Virus record (IMG/VR): IMGVR_UViG_3300028534_000514
Location: 1-64,000 of that record
Reading direction: 5' to 3' (one strand)
Source: a virus
Lineage: Duplodnaviria; Heunggongvirae; Uroviricota; Caudoviricetes
Length of the DNA stretch: 64,000 bases
Shown piece after piece: positions 5,175-16,655 of this stretch. The stretch's first letter is position 1. Each line of letters starts with the position of its first letter. The notes under the pieces are model-generated. The model had not been told where the DNA came from and did not search any database. It saw nothing but the letters and a program-made list of their open reading frames with translations. Made by a program: the position numbers and the translations under genes.

Positions 5175-5473
5175 AGGAAAACCTCTCTTTTATTACCATC
5201 TTCATCGATAATATAGATATCTTCGATCCAGATTGTATGCAATTCGGCATTATCTGGATACCCAGAAGGTAAATCACAACTGTCGTAATTTTCATCACGA
5301 AGTTGCTCAATCAGTTCATCAGTGATATCCTCAGTTAAAAAGGTCGTCGTACTATAGACATAATCACCATCGTTCCAATCGCCTCCAATTTCTACATAAA
5401 GACCAACTTCCAAATGCTCAGCATTTTCACCAATCTTTACGTCGAGTTGTGCCATTTTTTCTTCGATTTTCAT
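5171..5473 (-). CDS. acidic hypothetical protein (100 aa)
   Basis: ORF track. 4-nt overlap with downstream gene. Confidence 0.45.
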   Translation of the reverse strand: MKIEEKMAQLDVKIGENAEHLEVGLYVEIGGDWNDGDYVYSTTTFLTEDITDELIEQLRDENYDSCDLPSGYPDNAELHTIWIEDIYIIDEDGNKREVFL

Positions 5474-5978: not shown

Positions 5979-6339
5979 CTATATCTCCTTTACGATTTTT
6001 AACTTTTAAATATCTCTTAGCAATTTCATGAGCTTTATAGAAGTCATCCGTCGCGAATCTTTCAATCACATCTTCGAAGTTTTCCCCGCTATTCTTATAC
6101 CCTTTATCATAAACAACCAGGAGATATTTTTTGAAATCTTCTGAAGTTTGACCAATAATTGCTTCTATTCCTTCTTTAGGAAGAGTCCACTCAACCCAAT
6201 CGGCTCGGCTTTCAATTAAAAGAGGCCGGCCGCGTATAACCCATCTTTCGCCTTCCGGTGATTTATAGGTCACCTCATACAGTCGATCATTACAATCAAC
6301 TATGTCGCCGATCTTAATTTTATAGTAATTAACCACCAC
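5962..6339 (-). CDS. hypothetical protein (125 aa)
   Basis: ORF track. Confidence 0.45.
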   Translation of the reverse strand: MVVNYYKIKIGDIVDCNDRLYEVTYKSPEGERWVIRGRPLLIESRADWVEWTLPKEGIEAIIGQTSEDFKKYLLVVYDKGYKNSGENFEDVIERFATDDFYKAHEIAKRYLKVKNRKGDIDEKNL

Positions 6340-6353
6340 TGATCCTTTAATAC

Positions 6354-6611
6354 TTAATTACTATTAGCGGCAATCTCAACACCTTTGCCTTCATCCAATT
6401 TCCGCAGAATTTCGTCTATCATACCTGAAGATAGTCCAAGGCTGGTTAGACGCTCTTTTGAAAAAGTATAAGTTAAATGATTTGAAAATCTCTCAAGCGA
6501 GTGTTTTAGTTTAACGTAGGGTTTTTTGTAAGAATCCAGTGCTCCTATTACGATTCGTGAATCCTCTAAAACAAGCACATAGTCCCCTGTATTTAATTGA
6601 TCTAGTTCCAT
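6354..6611 (-). CDS. hypothetical protein (85 aa)
   Basis: Preceded by conserved leader ATTAAAAACAGTAAAGGaaaaaatATG. Confidence 0.5.
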   Translation of the reverse strand: MELDQLNTGDYVLVLEDSRIVIGALDSYKKPYVKLKHSLERFSNHLTYTFSKERLTSLGLSSGMIDEILRKLDEGKGVEIAANSN

Positions 6612-6639
6612 ATTTTTTCCTTTACTGTTTTTAATGTTT

Positions 6640-7101
6640 TTAAACTTTTAGAGTCGAAACAGATCTTATAAAATAAATCTTTTCGTCGTACTCCCAAACT
6701 GATTTGCCATTATTTGGAAACGAACCTCGCTCCAACCCATCTGGAGTCGCTGTCCAAATTTCATCTTCTGTGACCCCTTCAATTATATGGAAGGAATCTC
6801 TTGTCATTTTTTGATCATTTTTTAGCAAACATCCCAAAATAAATCCAATTTTATTTATGGAATCCTTTTCAAATTTAGGTATATCTCCTATATCAAGTTG
6901 TTCTACATCGAAGTCGATATCGATTTGATCCTTGCCCAAAAACCAACCCTCGGTTGAAGGTATATCCTCCATATAAAAATGAAGAGGGATTTCTTCTCCA
7001 ACCATCTCGTGCTGAGGGTGCTTTCTAATTGCTCTTGAAAAGCATACTTTTTGTGTGTCCTTATCCGTAATTTTATAAATGCTACCTACTACAACTTTCA
7101 T
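6640..7101 (-). CDS. hypothetical protein (153 aa)
   Basis: ORF track. Confidence 0.5.
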   Translation of the reverse strand: MKVVVGSIYKITDKDTQKVCFSRAIRKHPQHEMVGEEIPLHFYMEDIPSTEGWFLGKDQIDIDFDVEQLDIGDIPKFEKDSINKIGFILGCLLKNDQKMTRDSFHIIEGVTEDEIWTATPDGLERGSFPNNGKSVWEYDEKIYFIRSVSTLKV

Positions 7102-7121
7102 AATTTCTCCTTATCTAATTT

Positions 7122-7694
7122 TTACCATGAATTCCATACACGAACCCAATTCTTTTTTTTATCGTGAGATAAATGTATAAAAATATTCCTCCAAATTCTC
7201 TGGAGAACTTTTTCGAAAGGGGTTGGTTTTCTACCGATCTTTTTTTCTATATATTCCCAATCAAGGCCAATATAAATACTATTACCCTGATCATTACACA
7301 TTTGGTGGCGGAATAGTTTATATTGAAATTCTGACCAAAAGTCATCGTGAACTACTGCCGTAATTTGTACACCGTCGTAAAGCATAGGCACTGAACATTC
7401 TTTAAAGTTTTCGAATGCCTCCGAATAGTGTCGGCGATCACACGCCAGTATTCGATCAAAAAGTTTAGACATTTCACCGAAATCATAGCGGGTTAAATTA
7501 TCACTTACACGCCTTGACCAAATACGATTATTTTTGTCATATTTGCTTATTGATTTATATGAAAGATCTAATTTGGTTATTAGATCTGGCTGTTGGAAAA
7601 CTCCATTCATATCATGATAACCGGGGCGCAACTTATTGGCGTACGCCAACTGATGAATCCTACTGATCGGTTTCATCTTCGCTATAATTTTCAT
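7122..7694 (-). CDS. hypothetical protein (~190 aa; start revised to MKIIAKMKP)
   Basis: The track ORF extends to 7748. The conserved leader ATTAAAAACAGTAAAGGagattaatATG places the real start at 7694. Confidence 0.5.
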   Translation of the reverse strand: MKIIAKMKPISRIHQLAYANKLRPGYHDMNGVFQQPDLITKLDLSYKSISKYDKNNRIWSRRVSDNLTRYDFGEMSKLFDRILACDRRHYSEAFENFKECSVPMLYDGVQITAVVHDDFWSEFQYKLFRHQMCNDQGNSIYIGLDWEYIEKKIGRKPTPFEKVLQRIWRNIFIHLSHDKKKNWVRVWNSW

Positions 7695-7749
7695 ATTAAT
7701 CTCCTTTACTGTTTTTAATCTGACACAGAGACGTAAAATAATTTCCACA

Positions 7750-8076
7750 GGAAATTACCCATGAACCTTTGGTTCATGGGTTGCTAAAAGCAATTTTACG
7801 TGAGGAAAATATGTCGCTCAACTATCCTTAGATAATTCAGTGACATATTTTGGTTTGTGTTTCTGTTTTCTAGAGTATATTTTTTTACTCTTGATTGTTT
7901 TAGTCTTTAACGATATTTCACGCTTAATAGACAACTCTATGTTTCTGTCTCTAGCTTTTGGCTTTTGTTTTCGTTTGCGTGCCATTGTTCGCTCCTGTAA
8001 TTAATATCGCGGGAGTAATCCCGCGTCAGCTCCGTATCGATAATCATTTCCTTAAAGTTGTTAACTGACCATGTCT
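7750..8076. other. structured non-coding region downstream of the GIY-YIG gene
   Basis: No credible ORF. GC-richer than surroundings. Several stable hairpins (cccatgaacctttggttcatggg; cgcgggagtaatcccgcg; tttccacaggaaa). Confidence 0.35.
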
Positions 8077-8733
8077 TTAAGGCGCATTGGTTTCCTTTTT
8101 TAAAATTCGTCCTCGTTTCCAACCTTTTGGGATTGATGTATCTTTTTTTATTTTTCTATTTTCGGAGCCGTTTGTTATCCATATTGTGCCATATTGAGAA
8201 TTTTTGGGACCTTTAGAGTGATTTATTTTTTTAAAAGTTTCTTTTTGTTTCCGCAACGATTCTTCAGAATGCTTCCAATTTGGATGAAGTTCTTGCTTTC
8301 TTCTTTGACCTTTTTGTCCATTTTTTCTTAATTCCTTTTTGGACAGTCCGATTACACCCAATTTCTTTTCAACACAAATTAACCCACCCTTACGAGATTT
8401 TTCTCGATATTCTTCAGTAATAGTCGGTTTCCAAGTTCGCTTTAAAGAATTAATAAAATCAAAACCCCCATGTCCTCCCAGTTTTATATTATAATTATTT
8501 TTATCTTTGATATGATCCTCGTCAACCAACATACGTTCAATCCAATACGTTATCTCTTTTGAGCGTCCTACAAAAATAGGTAATTTATAGAAATTTTCTC
8601 TTCCATATTTATTTAAGGCCCTTTGAAAATAAGTACCTGAACCCAAGTACTCATCGTCAAAAGACCCTTTATGCACACCTATGTATGTTTTATTATTAAC
8701 TAAATTAGTTGTCTCATAAACATACCAATGCAT
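8077..8733 (-). CDS. GIY-YIG homing endonuclease (T4 Seg-like) with C-terminal NUMOD-like DNA-binding region
   Basis: N-terminus HWYVYETTNLVNNKTYIGVHKGS...YLGSG is a textbook GIY-(10-11)-YIG motif. C-terminus is basic (KKDTSIPKGWKRGR). Confidence 0.8.
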   Translation of the reverse strand: MHWYVYETTNLVNNKTYIGVHKGSFDDEYLGSGTYFQRALNKYGRENFYKLPIFVGRSKEITYWIERMLVDEDHIKDKNNYNIKLGGHGGFDFINSLKRTWKPTITEEYREKSRKGGLICVEKKLGVIGLSKKELRKNGQKGQRRKQELHPNWKHSEESLRKQKETFKKINHSKGPKNSQYGTIWITNGSENRKIKKDTSIPKGWKRGRILKKETNAP

Positions 8734-8755
8734 AATTAATTCCTTTATTTTTTGG

Positions 8756-8841
8756 TGGTCTCGCGAGGGGGATTTGAACCCCCAATCCCTTACGGGCGAA
8801 AGATTTTAAATCTTTTGTGTATACCGTTCCACCACCGCGAG
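8756..8841 (-). tRNA. tRNA-Leu (anticodon UAA), type II, CCA encoded
   Basis: Reverse strand reads CTCGCGG...anticodon loop cuUUAAaau...variable arm...GGGGGTTCAAATCCCCC-TCGCGAG-A-CCA. Acceptor stem pairs with one G-U. Confidence 0.7.
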
Positions 8842-8864
8842 TTTTAATAAAAAATTTATATAAT

Positions 8865-8914
8865 TCCTAAATATTAAACTGTTTGTTAAGTGTCTACCAT
8901 TCCACCACCGCGGC
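8865..8914 (-). pseudogene. tRNA 5'-half remnant (diverged duplicate of the tRNA-Leu 5' half)
   Basis: Reverse strand GCCGCGGTGGTGGAATGGTAGACAC matches acceptor + D-arm of the adjacent tRNA-Leu (CTCGCGGTGGTGGAACGGTATACAC). No intact anticodon or T arm follows. Confidence 0.4.
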
Positions 8915-8920
8915 TTAAAT

Positions 8921-9036
8921 CCAGGTCTTTAAGGCGCCTCGGTTTCCTTAATTACATTTTTAATGATAGTTCACAATTCCATGTCTTTAAGGCGCATTGG
9001 TTTCCTTAATTGCATTTTTAATGATTATTCACATCC
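8921..9036. repeat. tandem 58-nt direct repeat (2 copies, ~85% identical)
   Basis: caggtctttaaggcgcctcggtttccttaattacatttttaatgatagttcaca / ccatgtctttaaggcgcattggtttccttaattgcatttttaatgattattcaca. Confidence 0.7.
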
Positions 9037-9339
9037 ATCGATATGTACTTCGATGGCTTTTTTTGGCGACACGTATATGAAAGTCGCCGATACATTGAGA
9101 AGCTGCAAAGCTTCTCTTAGGTTCTTGTCTTCGCACGTCCCTTTATAAAGGGTGTCTCTCAACGCGTTTACGTCGAAACCCTCGAGATCGTCAACATAAT
9201 AAATGTTGACGATCTCTTTGCCAGTCATAAATTGGCCGGCTTTTGTTGGTCCACTCTTTGTCAACTTTGTTTGATAAAGAGTAGGCGAAGCAACGAGCAA
9301 CGCTCCTGCGGCTAAAAAAAATAAAAGTATTCTTCTCAT
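9025..9339 (-). CDS. small secreted protein (~104 aa; start revised to MRRILLFF)
   Basis: The track ORF (to 9408) overlaps tRNA-Ser. The internal start has SD aaaaggaagagaaATG and a signal peptide MRRILLFFLAAGALLVASPTLY. Confidence 0.5.
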   Translation of the reverse strand: MRRILLFFLAAGALLVASPTLYQTKLTKSGPTKAGQFMTGKEIVNIYYVDDLEGFDVNALRDTLYKGTCEDKNLREALQLLNVSATFIYVSPKKAIEVHIDGCE

Positions 9340-9384
9340 TTCTCTTCCTTTTTTCTCAATTTTTTTAATAGGGAATATCTTCTT

Positions 9385-9471
9385 CCGAGGATGTTGGATT
9401 CGAACCAACGGTAAGCTTACGCCTACTCTCAGTTAGCAACCGAGTGGATTAAACCTCTCTCCCAATCCTCG
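9385..9471 (-). tRNA. tRNA-Ser (anticodon GCU), type II
   Basis: Reverse strand CGAGGAT...cggTTGCTAActgag (anticodon GCT)...long variable arm...GGTTCGAATCC...ATCCTCG-G. 87 nt. Confidence 0.7.
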
Positions 9472-9489
9472 ATATAAAATAAACAATTG

Positions 9490-9566
9490 TGGTGGGTGCG
9501 GAGGGACTCGAACCCCCGACCATTCGGTTATGAGCCGAATGCTCTAACCAGCTGAGCTACACACCC
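9490..9566 (-). tRNA. tRNA-Met (anticodon CAU; initiator, elongator or Ile-lysidine not resolved), CCA encoded
   Basis: Reverse strand GGGTGTGTAGCTCAGCTGGTTAGAGC...ggCTCATAAcc...GGTTCGAGTCC...CGCACCC-A-CCA. Confidence 0.75.
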
Positions 9567-9571
9567 TTGAT

Positions 9572-9646
9572 TGGCTTCGGAGGCAGGATTCGAACCTGCG
9601 ACAACCTGATTAACAGTCAGGGATTCTACCACTGAACTACTCCGAA
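9572..9646 (-). tRNA. tRNA-Asn (anticodon GUU), CCA encoded
   Basis: Reverse strand TTCGGAGTAGTTCAGTGGTAGAAT...ctgaCTGTTAAtcagg...GGTTCGAATCC...CTCCGAA-G-CCA. Confidence 0.75.
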
Positions 9647-9681
9647 AAAATGATATATATTGTATAATCTAGTAATATATA

Positions 9682-9760
9682 AGGGACAACAACCTTTAGT
9701 TGTCCCTTCAATGTTAATATATTTATAGTTTTTTACTTTATTCTAAAGTAAAAAATATCG
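9682..9760. promoter_or_regulatory. hairpin + conserved 45-nt element (copy 1), containing TATAAATA on the minus strand
   Basis: agggacaacaacctttagttgtccct hairpin then caatgttaatatatttatagttttttactttattctaaa. Near-identical copy at 45028-45070. Lies upstream (minus sense) of the tRNA cluster. Confidence 0.4.
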
Positions 9761-9769
9761 ATGTTATAT

Positions 9770-10774
9770 TTAAAATACAAAGGTATATACAATAGCATAT
9801 ATTAATATTAATAGTTGCCATAAAATAATCACGTTAAAGTAATCATTAATTGGTGTATTAAAATACATTCTGCCTATATGTATACATTTATGGGTTGGGC
9901 TAAGATTATAAGCAATGAATTCAATTGTTAGAAACCATACCAAATAATGTATACCAAAGATTGAAATTATTATTGAAGCTAACCCGGCATATTTTCCGCT
10001 TGAACCCATAAGCCAACTAGCAGTAAAAGAAAAAAAACTAGCATAAACTAGGCTATGATTATTTTTGAGCAATTGCTCGAAAAGAGCAAAATGTTCTTTT
10101 ATAAAGAGTGAAACTATTAAAATAATAAATAATAATAAAACCAATTTCCAGTTTATGTATTTAAATATTTTTTTAATAGAGGAGTTACTTATTAATATAT
10201 AATACCCAGCGATTGGTATAAAGGTCAAAGCTGGAGAGTACCCAAAGCCTAATAGGATAATACCAAAAAATAATGGAAATGCTTTTAAAAAAAAAGATTT
10301 CAATGAAAATTTTTTCGTGGAAATCTTTAATTCAATATCCTCCTCTTTTATTATAAAAAAAATATATCCAAAAATAAAAAGAAAGGATATCACAATTACT
10401 GGCCACATATATTCAAAATATTCCTGGTAGGTTATACTAAGTACGGCCATTGGTAATATTACGGTTTTTTCAAGAGGACTCCAGAGATAATAATGATGAC
10501 TACTTAAATAATCAATTATTCCGAATTTTTTTCTTGATTTACCAGGTTTTGCCATAGAGTCTAATATACTAGCACTTACTGTTACCCTGCCTGGAATAGG
10601 AAGAATCCCCCCAATTAAAGACACCAAAAAAAGCTGCAGTCTCTTACTGCTAATTCTTGAAAGAACTATAAATATATCACTCAAAAATCCATAAGTTTTA
10701 ACGATTCCTGATATAATCATTATAGCGATCAAAAAGATAATATATTGAAATGGTAATATGTAATTTAATTCCAT
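9770..10774 (-). CDS. polytopic integral membrane protein (334 aa, ~9-10 TM)
   Basis: Extremely hydrophobic throughout. No catalytic motif recognised. Contains an in-frame copy of the GAGCAATTGCTC element. Confidence 0.55.
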   Translation of the reverse strand: MELNYILPFQYIIFLIAIMIISGIVKTYGFLSDIFIVLSRISSKRLQLFLVSLIGGILPIPGRVTVSASILDSMAKPGKSRKKFGIIDYLSSHHYYLWSPLEKTVILPMAVLSITYQEYFEYMWPVIVISFLFIFGYIFFIIKEEDIELKISTKKFSLKSFFLKAFPLFFGIILLGFGYSPALTFIPIAGYYILISNSSIKKIFKYINWKLVLLLFIILIVSLFIKEHFALFEQLLKNNHSLVYASFFSFTASWLMGSSGKYAGLASIIISIFGIHYLVWFLTIEFIAYNLSPTHKCIHIGRMYFNTPINDYFNVIILWQLLILIYAIVYTFVF

Positions 10775-10779
10775 CTAAT

Positions 10780-11172
10780 TTAGAATCCTTTCGCTTTAAT
10801 TGCTCCTGTATCTAAACTTGAGGTTGAACACCAGATTATGTCTTGGCCCGGATATTTTGGTGAATAAGGGGGACATTGATCAAAATACGGGTTTCTTGTC
10901 ATGGTTTGACTTGATCGCAAGGAAGCAACCTCCAACCTCAATCTAATTAGTTCAATATCATTTTCTCTAGCCTCTTTACGAAGTTCTTCAATCTCTTTAC
11001 GAAGTTCTGCATTCTCTTCTTTGAATTTTTCCCCTCTGCGAAGTTCCTCCAATTCAAAAAGTTTCTGTTGAAGAACGGTAATCGAATCATAGTCCCCTTT
11101 TACAAAAAGATTTCCACTGCCGTCACCAACACCCATTATAAGTTCACCAGGTTCTAGTTTAAAATTAGACAT
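10780..11172 (-). CDS. coiled-coil protein (130 aa)
   Basis: ELEELRRGEKFKEENAELRKEIEELRKEARENDIELIRLRLE heptads. Confidence 0.5.
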   Translation of the reverse strand: MSNFKLEPGELIMGVGDGSGNLFVKGDYDSITVLQQKLFELEELRRGEKFKEENAELRKEIEELRKEARENDIELIRLRLEVASLRSSQTMTRNPYFDQCPPYSPKYPGQDIIWCSTSSLDTGAIKAKGF

Positions 11173-12121: not shown

Positions 12122-13765
12122 TTAATTCCTTATATTATCAATTTTTTCAAAGGCCTCAGCCATTAGTTTTATATTTTCACCACCTTTATAATCATCTTTA
12201 TCAATTGTGAAATACACTTTATACTTTTGACCTTTTTCAGGAACGTTTGTTTCAAAGAATTTTACACCATCAAATTTAACTAGTCCTTTTTCATCCGTAA
12301 TTACAAACCTAAGATGGTTTCTATTTTTACCCATAAGACTTGCTGATTTAAGAATTCCTTCTGTGAGAAAAACTGGTTTACGAAAACGATGACCAAATGG
12401 CTCAAATTCTCGAATAACCTCAAAAAAATCCCAGTTAATTTTATTAATTGGGATTTTTCCCATAACTTTACGTTTTGGCTTAAGAATTTCCGGAGGTACT
12501 TTTTGTATATCAGATTGTAGTTGGAGGTAAAAATCTTCGAATTTTTCCTCCTCGATTGTTATACCAAGTGCCTGCTTATGACCACCAACCTGTTTTATAT
12601 AGGGATTATCACGTAAAACATCCAAAATATTTAAGTCACCAATTGATCTCCCGCTCCCACTATATTCTTTGGTTTCGGGATTATAATTTAAAACTATACA
12701 TGGTTTATTATTTGATTGAGCCAAATTGCCCGAGATAACACCAAGAACTCCTTTAAATTCTTTTTGAAATTTGCCAGGAATTACTATAAAAGGTGCATTT
12801 ATATACTCTTTATAGTATTTTTCAATATATGATAATAGATTTTGCTGCTTTTCTTTCCGTGCTTCATTTAAACTTTTAAGATATTCAAACCATTGTTTGC
12901 TATTTTCTTTGGTGTTTGAAATAAGAAACATTGCTCCATGATCTGCTTTTGTCATTCTTTGAGTTGCGTTAATCATAGGCACTAAACCAAAGCTGAAAGA
13001 TTCGGCTGTTGGATTAGCATTAACTTCTTCCCTGAATATATTTAAATATTCTCTATGACAACTATCACTCGAACAAAATTTATCTACAAAATCTTTTACA
13101 ACATATCTATTAATATGTTTATTAATTGGCATAACATCACTTATCGTTGTTAAAGCAATTTCTGGAAGAAATTCGTCGTATACGTCGATCGGCACCTGAT
13201 ATTTTTCGACGAGCGCTTTAATAAAAAACCATAAAACGAAGGTACCACTAATATCTTTATAGGGGAAGGTATCCTCTGGATGATATGGATCGACAATTGC
13301 GTCCGCCTCAGGTAGCCCCATATCTAAATCTGGTTGATGATGATCGCATATAATTACCTTCGCTCCTTTTTTATGAGCAGCTTCTGTTGCAGGTATTGAA
13401 GTAATTCCATTATCTGATGTTATGTATAGTTTTGTATCATCATCGATGTATTCTGGTATAAATCCGTACCCTTTTTTGCGGTCTGTGATAAGCAATTCAA
13501 TATTACTATAAGGAAAATGGATAAAAAAATTATACCAAAGAGTATATGTACCCAAACCATCCATATCACTATCGCAAACCAATTTAATTTTTTCATTATT
13601 AGCAACCGCCTTTGTAAAAATATCTACAGCTTTGTCCATATCATGCAACTCATATGGATTTGGAAATTCTTTATAGGAATATACCTGAGGATACTGTTCC
13701 AATTCTTTTTCCAGAAGTTCCTTAAGGTCATCCGGCTCATTAAATACACGTATATTATCTTGCAT
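12122..13765 (-). CDS. DHH-DHHA1 family phosphoesterase (RecJ-like exonuclease or NrnA-like oligo/cyclic-nucleotide phosphodiesterase)
   Basis: DHH motifs VCDSDMDGLGT and ICDHHQP. DHHA1 motif VGGHKQALG near the C-terminus. 547 aa. Confidence 0.7.
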   Translation of the reverse strand: MQDNIRVFNEPDDLKELLEKELEQYPQVYSYKEFPNPYELHDMDKAVDIFTKAVANNEKIKLVCDSDMDGLGTYTLWYNFFIHFPYSNIELLITDRKKGYGFIPEYIDDDTKLYITSDNGITSIPATEAAHKKGAKVIICDHHQPDLDMGLPEADAIVDPYHPEDTFPYKDISGTFVLWFFIKALVEKYQVPIDVYDEFLPEIALTTISDVMPINKHINRYVVKDFVDKFCSSDSCHREYLNIFREEVNANPTAESFSFGLVPMINATQRMTKADHGAMFLISNTKENSKQWFEYLKSLNEARKEKQQNLLSYIEKYYKEYINAPFIVIPGKFQKEFKGVLGVISGNLAQSNNKPCIVLNYNPETKEYSGSGRSIGDLNILDVLRDNPYIKQVGGHKQALGITIEEEKFEDFYLQLQSDIQKVPPEILKPKRKVMGKIPINKINWDFFEVIREFEPFGHRFRKPVFLTEGILKSASLMGKNRNHLRFVITDEKGLVKFDGVKFFETNVPEKGQKYKVYFTIDKDDYKGGENIKLMAEAFEKIDNIRN

Positions 13766-15277: not shown

Positions 15278-15556
15278 CTATGTTTGAGCATGACGTTTAT
15301 GTACGATCTCTTTAGCACGATTTACTTTCGCCCTAATCTCTGGAGGTATATTTTTTCCTCCACGATTTAAAAAGAAGTTTAATCTAGCCATCGTTGTTTT
15401 AAGGCTGGCTTTACCGTGCTGGGAAATTATATTCGCGATTTCTTCAGCAGATTTCTCTTTAAATGTTCCAGCTGGCGGATGAAATTTTTCACGGACTTTA
15501 TTTGCCCATTTTTCTTCAGCTTCCTCAATAAGTCTTTCAATTTTTTGCTCTAGCAT
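15278..15556 (-). CDS. small basic protein (92 aa)
   Basis: ORF track. Overlaps the upstream gene by 20 nt. Confidence 0.45.
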   Translation of the reverse strand: MLEQKIERLIEEAEEKWANKVREKFHPPAGTFKEKSAEEIANIISQHGKASLKTTMARLNFFLNRGGKNIPPEIRAKVNRAKEIVHKRHAQT

Positions 15557-16655
15557 TTTTTATCCTTTTATTTTTCTTAGTATTTTTTATCCTTTGCTGT
15601 TCTTCGATATAATCATCAATGGTACGTTTTAAATCGAGCCATGCTTCTGTAACATACTTTGGTTTTTTAGGAAGAGTTCTGCGATTCGGAAAAACTTTAA
15701 AGTAATATTTCTTTACTTTATTCCACTCTCTTAATCCAACTTTTTTTCTTTTAGGTATTTCTATTGGATGAATAATGTCTTTTTGGTCCTCGAGATAATC
15801 AGCCATTCTTCTAAGTACATCAGGCAATTCTTCGTTTGAGATGCCATGACGAGCAGCGTTGTTTTCCGAACGAGCTAAAAATGTGTTACACATACTACAG
15901 ACTGCCCCACGAATACGCCCGGTACCTTTAACTCGCTTTTGATGCATATGATCCAAAGTTGGATCTTTTACGGGTTTACCACAAATTGTACATTTACCTT
16001 TCTGTTTATGTAAAAGAGCATCTCTTAAAGGTTTAACAGCTTTTGATTTACAAACCCACATAAAATGAGGCAAATAAGTTTTATTAATATTGAACCCCAA
16101 GTCGTTAGGAACTGTAATTTTATTTTTTGTATTTCGCTGTTGGTAAAGAGCTTCAATAGTATGTGCTTCTAAAAGAGCGCATTCGATTTTATCGATTGGT
16201 TCTATTTTAAAAGATTTCCATTTATGAGGATTCCATAACTTATCGAAATCTTCTAGAAAATTTCCCTCTGATTTTTCATCGAGATTTGACAATATCCCTA
16301 TTTTCTCAAACATCATGCCTGTCTCTTTATGAGTAACAAGAATACGATAATAGAGAGCTCGAGTCTCAAAGATTTCAGGTTGATCTTTATTTTTCTTGAA
16401 GAAATCTAACCAGAAATCTCCGCCAGAGTATTTCAATTCATCTTTAATTGTTTTTTGAGCTTCTTCTAAAATATTCATCATACGAGACGATTTTAAGAAT
16501 TGACACCGAGGACAATCACCGTTCCCCCGTTTTACTTCCTTAACTTTTTTATAATATAAGCCATGCTCTTCACAGGTAATCGAAATAAAATCTTCATCAG
16601 AATTTATCTCTTTAGGAATGAAGTGCATGCTTTCTGGAAGTTGTAATACGTTCAT
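15537..16655 (-). CDS. HNH endonuclease of the endonuclease VII type, with N-terminal Zn-ribbon region
   Basis: C-terminal half KGKCTICGKPVKDPTLDHMHQKRVKGTGRIRGAVCSMCNTFLARSENN matches the T4 endo VII DHxH...G.IRG.LC..CN signature. Confidence 0.65.
   Translation of the reverse strand: MNVLQLPESMHFIPKEINSDEDFISITCEEHGLYYKKVKEVKRGNGDCPRCQFLKSSRMMNILEEAQKTIKDELKYSGGDFWLDFFKKNKDQPEIFETRALYYRILVTHKETGMMFEKIGILSNLDEKSEGNFLEDFDKLWNPHKWKSFKIEPIDKIECALLEAHTIEALYQQRNTKNKITVPNDLGFNINKTYLPHFMWVCKSKAVKPLRDALLHKQKGKCTICGKPVKDPTLDHMHQKRVKGTGRIRGAVCSMCNTFLARSENNAARHGISNEELPDVLRRMADYLEDQKDIIHPIEIPKRKKVGLREWNKVKKYYFKVFPNRRTLPKKPKYVTEAWLDLKRTIDDYIEEQQRIKNTKKNKRIKNARAKN

Follow-up and report, generated by a model that had tools for sequence, protein, structure and literature searches.

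SegB-type endonucleases are widely tied to the transfer RNA (tRNA) genes of phages, where they drive an amplification of such tRNA genes as counter tRNA-cleaving defences (PMC13096335). SegB cleaves within tRNA genes, and flanking tRNA genes are carried along by its homing through co-conversion (PMC2330249). In phage T6, a unit of 718 base pairs (bp) comprising tRNA-Tyr and segB is amplified in a SegB-dependent and recombination-dependent manner via homology of the tRNA 5' region to the 3' end of segB (PMC13096335). Here we analyse a stretch of 64,000 nucleotides (nt) of phage DNA (the window: positions 1 to 64,000 of IMG/VR record IMGVR_UViG_3300028534_000514), in which a SegB-family homing endonuclease gene (HEG), a tRNA-Leu(UAA) gene and repeated copies of a short element lie together at positions 7750-9036. 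A cassette made up of an AT-rich spacer, a T4-phage-type tRNA-Leu(UAA) and the SegB-family HEG stands at this locus, and 25 nt of the resident tRNA are left beside it. We consider it fairly probable that a SegB-type HEG and a foreign tRNA-Leu replaced the resident tRNA-Leu, and that the repeats are copies of a resident element which came to flank the cassette through recombinational repair. A HEG-associated rearrangement at a tRNA locus, as proposed from the letters of the window (the original prediction), is borne out by the SegB homology, by HEG-free relatives and by the truncation and replacement of the resident tRNA-Leu.

A foreign tRNA-Leu beside a truncated resident gene

Related loci, designated here by L numbers, were recovered through two anchors, a flanking protein of 190 residues and a RecJ-like protein. 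The tRNA-Leu locus is without a HEG in L006, L020 and L021, and in L024 the HEG lies elsewhere in the tRNA cluster. Two of these relatives present the empty site in some detail. In L006 (RecJ 63% identity), the order is tRNA-Met, tRNA-Leu(UAA), tRNA-Ser, an assembly gap, two identical tandem 58-nt units, a second tRNA-Leu(UAA), a tRNA-like stretch and a homologue of a small open reading frame (ORF) that encodes 55 residues in the window; no HEG was found in the L006 locus. In L020 (RecJ 85% identity), the order is tRNA-Asn, one unit, a leader and tRNA-Leu(UAA).

Between L006 and L024, the tRNA-Leu genes are 94-97% identical, and they define the resident type. A fragment in the window agrees at 25/25 positions with the first 25 nt of the tRNA-Leu in L006, L020 and L024, and at 21/23 with the intact tRNA-Leu of the window. 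That intact gene, correctly called in the original prediction, has 68-70% identity to the resident type, 80% to L004 (an unrelated viral contig) and 85% to the tRNA-Leu of the T4-like Citrobacter phage CF1. Since the fragment is entirely of the resident type and the intact copy is divergent, the fragment is what remains of the resident tRNA-Leu, and the intact copy came from elsewhere; the earlier description of the fragment as a diverged duplicate of the tRNA-Leu 5' half has to be corrected, as it comprises nt 1-25 of another allele, the resident one. At the level of sequence comparison, these alignments establish that the resident tRNA-Leu is truncated and a foreign allele present, in a cassette of ~0.8 kilobases (kb) where relatives keep their own tRNA-Leu(UAA). 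Most simply, the foreign tRNA-Leu would have arrived together with the adjacent SegB-like gene.

The features of the locus, all on the minus strand, are given below; bit scores marked R1 refer to a covariance model of the repeated element.

9339-9025, minus strand: ORF of 104 residues with a signal-peptide-like N-terminus
8975-9032, minus strand: unit A, a 58-nt tandem unit whose core, 9007-8979, reads aaggaaaccaatgcgccttaaagacatgg on the minus strand (R1, 53.7 bits)
8917-8974, minus strand: unit B, a 58-nt tandem unit with 88% identity to A and its core at 8949-8921 (R1, 53.0 bits)
8890-8914, minus strand: remnant of the resident tRNA-Leu(UAA), nt 1-25 (GCCGCGGTGGTGGAATGGTAGACAC), equal to the tRNA-Leu 5' end of L006, L020 and L024
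8842-8889, minus strand: AT-rich spacer of 48 nt, the left edge of the cassette
8756-8841, minus strand: intact tRNA-Leu(UAA) of foreign, T4-phage-like type (ARAGORN; Rfam tRNA, 54 bits)
Between the intact tRNA-Leu and the HEG, minus strand: 22 nt with a ribosome-binding site
8077-8733, minus strand: gene for a free-standing GIY-YIG homing endonuclease of the SegB family, 218 residues
8069-8097, minus strand: unit C, a solitary 29-nt core identical to the unit A core (R1, 49.2 bits)
8040-8068, minus strand: leader-like stretch tcagttAACAACTttaaggaaatGATTAT, short and tentative, from a by-eye comparison with L020 and L006
8008-8025, minus strand: GC-rich terminator-like hairpin CGCGGGATTACTCCCGCG between unit C and the small ORF
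7818-7985, minus strand: gene for a very basic protein of 55 residues (MARKRKQKPK...) with an AGGAG ribosome-binding site
7806-7851, minus strand: 21-bp hairpin (inverted repeat I3) across the stop codon of the small ORF, kept in L006
7757-7781, minus strand: 11-bp terminator-like hairpin ACCCATGAACC aaa GGTTCATGGGT, in a 76-nt stretch absent from L006
Past the terminator-like hairpin 7781-7757: the next gene

Assembly can go wrong at short exact repeats and tandem units, and a repeat-induced misjoin of two loci would give such an arrangement artificially. A Logan contig (L005, from SRR8439170), which is an independent assembly, is 100% identical over 6199-9732 and contains the same arrangement with all three repeat copies, so that the arrangement is not a quirk of one contig's assembly. 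This agreement of a separate contig over 3.5 kb, together with a gene order on both sides as in relatives, makes an assembly artefact extremely improbable.

Truncated tRNA genes also stand beside homologous HEGs in other genomes. In L024, a 5' remnant of tRNA-Gln (nt 1-40, 100%; as a 43-nt exact-type duplicate, 8703-8745 against 9003-9045) lies 300 bp upstream of the full gene, and in L027, at 28-70, a tRNA-Tyr-like 5' half that by eye ends in the anticodon loop comes right before the HEG start, with an intact, different tRNA-Tyr right past the HEG. These 5' tRNA remnants were counted as support for allele replacement.

Two further observations concern the tRNA-Leu genes of the relatives. L006 contains at 5230-5310, between the second tRNA-Leu and the small ORF, a tRNA-like sequence with acceptor-arm-like and T-arm-like parts for which neither ARAGORN nor Rfam gave a call. 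In L020, at 13219-13549 (JGI 3300033146 Ga0366841_1002817), the tRNA-Leu(UAA) is interrupted exactly after U34 of the anticodon by sequence with a sub-threshold match to the group I intron (RF00028, 21.4 bits, E 0.0026); the contig ends within this sequence, and a reverse-strand ORF runs off the end. The position after U34 is the classical insertion site of the group I intron of cyanobacterial and plastid tRNA-Leu.

The endonuclease gene and its fused 3' end

The ORF at 8733-8077 had been predicted to encode a GIY-YIG-type endonuclease, and this assignment could be both upheld and made more precise. BLASTP aligns residues 1-212 of its 218 with T6 SegB at 37% identity (E 1e-38), with VYE...YIGVH and the R, E and N all aligned and with the catalytic Y17 and G19 kept; mutation of Y17 or G19 abolishes SegB activity (PMC13096335). 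The C-terminal half of the protein also aligns with SegB, including the WITNG...P.GW..GR motif. A match to phrog_314, 'homing endonuclease', was obtained at 5e-30, and tblastn matched 893 phage records, mainly T4-like and many of them annotated segB or Seg-like, including the annotated segB of T6 and of Yersinia phage PST. A profile built from four proteins, that of the window and three relatives, matches the whole I-TevI catalytic domain (1LN0, E 0.03). The window protein alone matches Pfam weakly (SegE_GIY-YIG, E 0.009); family members match Pfam GIY-YIG, and NUMOD3 (6.5e-7) was found in 3/4 members, the window protein itself having none at E <= 1. A search of the PDB with the HEG product alone returned only designed 'Pizza' repeat proteins, which were set aside as spurious. 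These alignments identify the ORF as a SegB homologue and a predicted free-standing GIY-YIG homing endonuclease of the SegB family.

The gene starts 22 nt past tRNA-Leu and is free-standing within a tRNA cluster, with tRNA-Ser, tRNA-Met and tRNA-Asn 0.5-0.9 kb upstream; no intron signal was detected at the HEG/tRNA-Leu locus with Rfam. Every HEG relative that was fetched is located in a tRNA cluster, namely those on four IMG/VR contigs, in L024 (a related jumbo phage, 44% identity), in T6 and in an Acinetobacter phage. The two closest homologues, at 52% and 49% identity, lie in tRNA clusters beside other tRNAs. SegB homologues are strongly co-localised with tRNA genes (PMC13096335), as here.

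In the spacer just upstream of the intact tRNA-Leu there is a sigma-70-like TTAACA-18-AATTAT pair (a consensus match only, the count of such pairs being not above shuffles), and the foreign tRNA-Leu and the HEG may be served by a promoter that came with the cassette. The pair (8860-8889, minus strand) begins exactly at the junction of the resident remnant and the cassette.

The native end of the protein, ...GWKRGRILK, is the position where homologues stop, after which KETNAP* is read from unit C. The repeat copy at 8069-8097, which the original prediction had placed outside the HEG, thus supplies the last six codons and the stop of the ORF, and the running of the HEG frame into unit C points to a recombination junction at the unit edge.

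The T6 SegB motif, RAWTSGAAC, was considered as the identity of the repeated unit and rejected: near this locus the motif occurs only in the T-arms of tRNA-Ser and tRNA-Asn, and in the window it has chance frequency. The sequence GGTTCRANTCC fits both the resident and the foreign tRNA-Leu, and therefore no argument from immunity to cleavage can be made.

The repeated element

The 29-mer ccatgtctttaaggcgcattggtttcctt occurs as an exact 29/29 match at 8069-8097 and 8979-9007, and no such match arose in 100 shuffles, which confirms the perfect direct repeats of the original prediction. A third copy that had been overlooked lies at 8921-8949; it matches at 26/29 positions, and its differences preserve the stem pairing proposed below. 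Units at 8917-8974 and 8975-9032 stand in tandem, each 58 nt long. A core of GGAAAC-N5-CGCC-N1-2-TAAAGA-N3-5 is common to the three copies of the window, two of L006 and one of L020. In the HEG-free relatives the element stands upstream of tRNA-Leu(UAA), singly in L020 and in two or more tandem copies in L006.

The covariance model R1 was built from these six copies, and a scan of 224 kb (the window and 14 related or HEG-bearing loci) returned those six only. Unit and 55-residue gene are both absent from the fetched parts of L021, L023, L024, L025, L033 and L034. In IMG/VR, pattern scans gave 0 matches for the exact window-type pattern and 0 for a variable-gap pattern. The variable-gap pattern had one match among GTDB genomes, in a Pedobacter chromosome, which was taken as chance. 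A metagenome scan gave 11 chance matches in GC-rich contigs and is weak evidence of absence, the pattern's two fixed bases from CGCC to TAAAGA fitting L006 and not the window copies; a unit pattern that covers the window-type copies is GGAAACNRAKRCGCCN{1,2}TAAAGA.

Because copies exist in HEG-free relatives, the element is older than the HEG, and it is specific to the tRNA-Leu leader of this clade. Judged by their letters and distribution, the 29-bp repeats are copies of a clade-specific element of ~30 nt that normally stands, single or in tandem, in the tRNA-Leu leader of HEG-free relatives, and they lose the standing of an insertion signature that they had been given. They are no widespread promoter motif either: across the window and the 15 searched sources, the repeat was found at this locus only.

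The reading of the repeats in the original prediction, as a target-site duplication or endonuclease recognition site made or selected by insertion, has in its favour that exact repeats flank the HEG and tRNA segment. We hold it to be highly improbable. Homing by double-strand-break repair makes no target-site duplications, the element is present and already tandem in HEG-free genomes, a third copy lies inside the supposedly flanked segment, and the element is unlike the GGTTCRANTCC core recognised by SegB (PMC2330249). A target-site duplication as such was rejected on the at least two tandem copies of HEG-free L006 and the single copy upstream of tRNA-Leu in L020.

Other identities of the unit were also set aside. 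A general promoter is contradicted by the scarcity of the unit: the 64 kb contain just three copies, and away from this locus the 224 kb of related DNA have none. On inspection, an anticodon-arm mimic and a tRNA fragment were dismissed too, the flanks being unpaired and the unit having no similarity to tRNA-Leu. A mini-array resembling clustered regularly interspaced short palindromic repeats (CRISPR) was discounted in view of the near-identity of the stretches before core A and between A and B, the 88% identity of the units and the identity of the L006 units.

The sequence after unit C (AACAACT...GATTAT) resembles the spacer between unit and tRNA-Leu in L020 and L006. After units A and B, by contrast, the tRNA remnant comes almost at once. 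Unit C thus has the appearance of an original 'unit and leader' without its tRNA.

A possible RNA structure

The element is probably a structured RNA, which would be transcribed in the pre-tRNA-Leu leader. On the transcribed strand, CCAAUG...CAUGG can pair into a stem of 5 bp, with one A bulged out, that encloses the conserved loop CGCCYYUAAAGA (CGCCYYTAAAGA), and UUAAGG...CCUUAA could possibly form a second stem, making an H-type pseudoknot. Over the five distinct copies, 93% of the cells are paired, against 82% in shuffles and at most 51% in slid controls; 4/9 pairs change on both sides, with a covariation score of 0.49 against 0.25 for shuffles (reached by 1/500 shuffles). G-U pairs are on the transcribed strand only. 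The modelled hairpin or pseudoknot is suggestive, a lead rather than a result.

A larger proposal can be framed from it, which we rate as speculative and quite unlikely: the unit of ~31 nt (UUAAGG-AAA-CCAAUG-CG-CCUUAA-AGA-CAUGG) would be a previously undescribed structured RNA of the pre-tRNA-Leu leader in one small clade of jumbo phages, possibly a compact H-type pseudoknot, and would double as the homology for SegB-like deletion or amplification of the tRNA-Leu and HEG. If true, the locus would be a natural, pre-wired version of the T6 laboratory amplification.

The covariation also speaks for an explanation in which the repeats owe nothing to the HEG. The element would be an independent cis-regulatory one, an RNA leader or a protein operator, standing before tRNA-Leu and before the small basic protein gene; the HEG cassette would have dropped between two older copies, and the flanking would be coincidental. 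Its retention in HEG-free relatives accords with this, as does the stretch that follows unit C, which would then be a leader like that ahead of tRNA-Leu in L020 and L006, and so does the distribution, element and 55-residue gene being together in the window and L006 and both absent from the fetched parts of L021, L024, L025, L033 and L034. However, no unit lies between the second tRNA-Leu and the small ORF in L006; A and C agree at 29/29 positions, while the adjacent B differs at 3; the HEG frame passes into unit C, which points to a recombination junction exactly at the unit edge; and the resident tRNA expected past the unit C leader is missing. On balance we consider this explanation unlikely, though not strongly so, and prefer replacement of the resident tRNA-Leu with repair-mediated flanking by copies of its element.

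The region downstream of the endonuclease gene

The region 7750-8076 had been described as non-coding, GC-richer and hairpin-rich, and as a possible ribozyme or intron remnant. Its hairpin-richness stands: the minus-strand RNA has a minimum free energy of -86.7 kcal/mol against -52.5 +/- 4.2 kcal/mol for shuffles (z = -8.1). Its higher GC content is marginal (36.4%, with 32.3% in the HEG, 36.0% in the next gene and 34.2% in the window), and the non-coding label falls, as 7985-7818 codes for a conserved protein of 55 residues. With Rfam 15, a scan of 7700-8120 at E <= 10 gave noise only (preQ1-II 2.9, snoR144 3.9, S15 leader 1.4), and over 7000-10000 the tRNAs were the only significant matches. 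A group I intron or ribozyme remnant in 7750-8076 was therefore rejected, with no Rfam family emerging even at E <= 10 in the covariance-model scan.

The small protein has a homologue at the same position in L006, with 37 codons identical and with 9 synonymous and 9 non-synonymous differences, 3 of which are K/R exchanges. Altogether 40 homologues were found at E < 1e-3; they are small and basic, of 38-160 residues, and the motif RD.NI...EI.L.TK.IKSKK.YSRKQKHK is common to these ~40 proteins. Residues 12-44 match phrog_18092 (E 4.5e-6), and a match to DUF7230 is below the Pfam cut-off. What lies downstream of the HEG is an ordinary small gene, for a basic protein of 55 residues belonging with phrog_18092, accompanied by a stem like that of a terminator and by conserved hairpins.

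The 3' half of the ORF (window 7806-7930, minus strand; L006:5400-5515) is nearly identical in nucleotides between the two genomes, although RecJ is only 63% identical, and it contains two conserved hairpins, AGAGUA...UACUCU and the 21-bp stem over the stop codon. This pattern suggests a constraint at the RNA level beyond coding.

Genomic setting

The window is part of a 285-kb contig of an uncultivated jumbo phage with a GC content of ~34%. It includes a gene like that for the beta subunit of a multisubunit RNA polymerase, genes for a primase, a RecJ-like exonuclease and ribonucleotide reductase, and tail genes. At the DNA level, positions 6000-11000 had no match among the INPHARED phages by Megablast, and an IMG/VR search with the flanking protein of 190 residues returned nothing.

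Directly upstream of the tRNA cluster (9770-10774) lies a gene for a DUF401/CitMHS-like membrane protein, which is kept in L021, L023, L024 and L033, and near the tRNA cluster in relatives there are genes for Tad2-like (PF11195), ClpP, GGDEF and QueC proteins. Elsewhere in the window we noted genes for an SPFH/Band 7 protein (921-1868) and an endonuclease VII-like protein (15537-16655). At 9035-9056, on the plus strand, a hairpin like that of an intrinsic terminator with a T7 run lies inside the 3' end of the minus-strand ORF of 104 residues, with no plus-strand gene nearby. An 18-nt exact repeat at 6618-6635 and 7702-7719, ATTAAAAACAGTAAAGGA on the minus strand, stands just 5' of two start codons, and strings like AAAAAYAKTAAAGGAG precede many genes in L006, L021 and L023; these are probably the clade's extended ribosome-binding or promoter-proximal motif.

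Origin of the arrangement

The mechanism set out here is drawn from the established behaviour of SegB, that is, tRNA-gene cleavage, co-conversion and amplification. A SegB-like enzyme of a co-infecting relative would have cut the resident tRNA-Leu gene, and the break would have been repaired from the HEG-bearing genome, with homology on the side of the small ORF and an illegitimate or microhomology join on the other. The product would keep the recipient's units A and B and the 5' end of its tRNA, and would gain the donor's unit C and leader. Repair in this manner would put copies of the element to the left and right of the cassette and fuse the HEG frame, at its 3' end, to unit C. The identical 29-bp copies now bracket a tRNA-Leu and HEG segment of 910 bp, which homologous recombination can delete or tandemly amplify, as experiments on tRNA-Tyr and segB in phage T6 have demonstrated there.

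The homology on which such recombination would act is present at 29/29 nt between the region 5' of the tRNA (9007-8979) and the 3' end of the HEG (8097-8069). No tandem copies of the tRNA and HEG segment were seen, the window and the Logan contig each having a single copy. An account in which a SegB-driven tandem amplification of tRNA-Leu and HEG has collapsed to the present locus, or in which the assembler collapsed a population of heterogeneous copy number, draws on the likeness to T6, where the amplified unit is likewise tRNA and segB with its junction in the segB 3' end. The direct repeats, one 5' of the tRNA and one at the 3' end of the HEG, the altered C-terminus of the HEG product and, in L024, a 300-bp duplication bounded by tRNA-Gln 5' copies beside its HEG are all in keeping with it. 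It is nonetheless very doubtful in our view, given the single copy of the segment in two assemblies; moreover, tandem duplication alone makes no 29-bp flanking repeat, and the repeat is already present in HEG-free relatives.

Several points weigh against replacement of the resident tRNA-Leu followed by repair-mediated flanking. The order of events lacks a unique reconstruction. Deleting the cassette does not restore a sequence like that of L006, and no tRNA follows the unit C leader, so that one or more additional deletions, or a donor arrangement not yet seen, have to be supposed. No donor genome with the cassette was found, the closest HEGs (52% and 49%) being those beside other tRNAs. Cleavage by T4 SegB falls at the T-arm (PMC2330249), but the remnant stops at nt 25, and resection must therefore be invoked. 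The exact identity of A and C could stem from gene conversion or selection and not from a recent event. As to the element itself, the free energy of the unit hairpin is no better than that of shuffles (z ~0), and the structure rests on 5 sequences from 3 genomes and was derived from those same sequences.

Comparison with known systems

The locus is a natural example of the leftovers of such an event: a truncated resident tRNA, a foreign replacement allele, a HEG frame fused to flanking DNA, and flanking homologies that could support amplification. It also draws attention to the small conserved element upstream of tRNA-Leu.

The closest described counterpart is SegB of T4 and T6 (PMC2330249, PMC13096335). 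The window protein shares with it full-length homology (37%), equal length and the conserved Y17 and G19, and both genes are free-standing and lie directly after a tRNA gene within a phage tRNA cluster. Both are also present in some relatives and absent from others, and travel with neighbouring tRNA genes. With the T6 amplification unit, the locus has in common that the stretch upstream of the tRNA is homologous to the 3' end of the HEG. The host here, however, is no T4-like phage but an uncultivated jumbo phage that encodes a multisubunit RNA polymerase, the neighbouring tRNA is Leu(UAA), and the segment is present in a single copy; the homology at its flanks consists of a 29-bp copy of a resident element and is not a microhomology.

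I-TevI and other GIY-YIG homing endonucleases resemble the window protein in the catalytic domain at profile level, and its family members have NUMOD3-type C-terminal motifs, but the HEG of the window is not intron-encoded, and no group I intron was detected at its locus. The group I intron of tRNA-Leu(UAA) in cyanobacteria and plastids (RF00028) offers a parallel in that the same gene is targeted by mobile elements in this clade (L020), although the tRNA-Leu of the window is continuous and the region 7750-8076 is without an intron signal. The ORF of 55 residues belongs with small phage proteins through its match to phrog_18092 and their common motif, the likeness to DUF7230 falling below cut-off.

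In summary, this is an ordinary, neatly documented case of a SegB-type HEG in a phage tRNA cluster, accompanied by an instructive pattern of scars and a small conserved element. It leaves current understanding unchanged and is a useful annotated example rather than a discovery, one that extends the known association of SegB-type endonucleases with phage tRNA genes to an uncultivated clade of jumbo phages.

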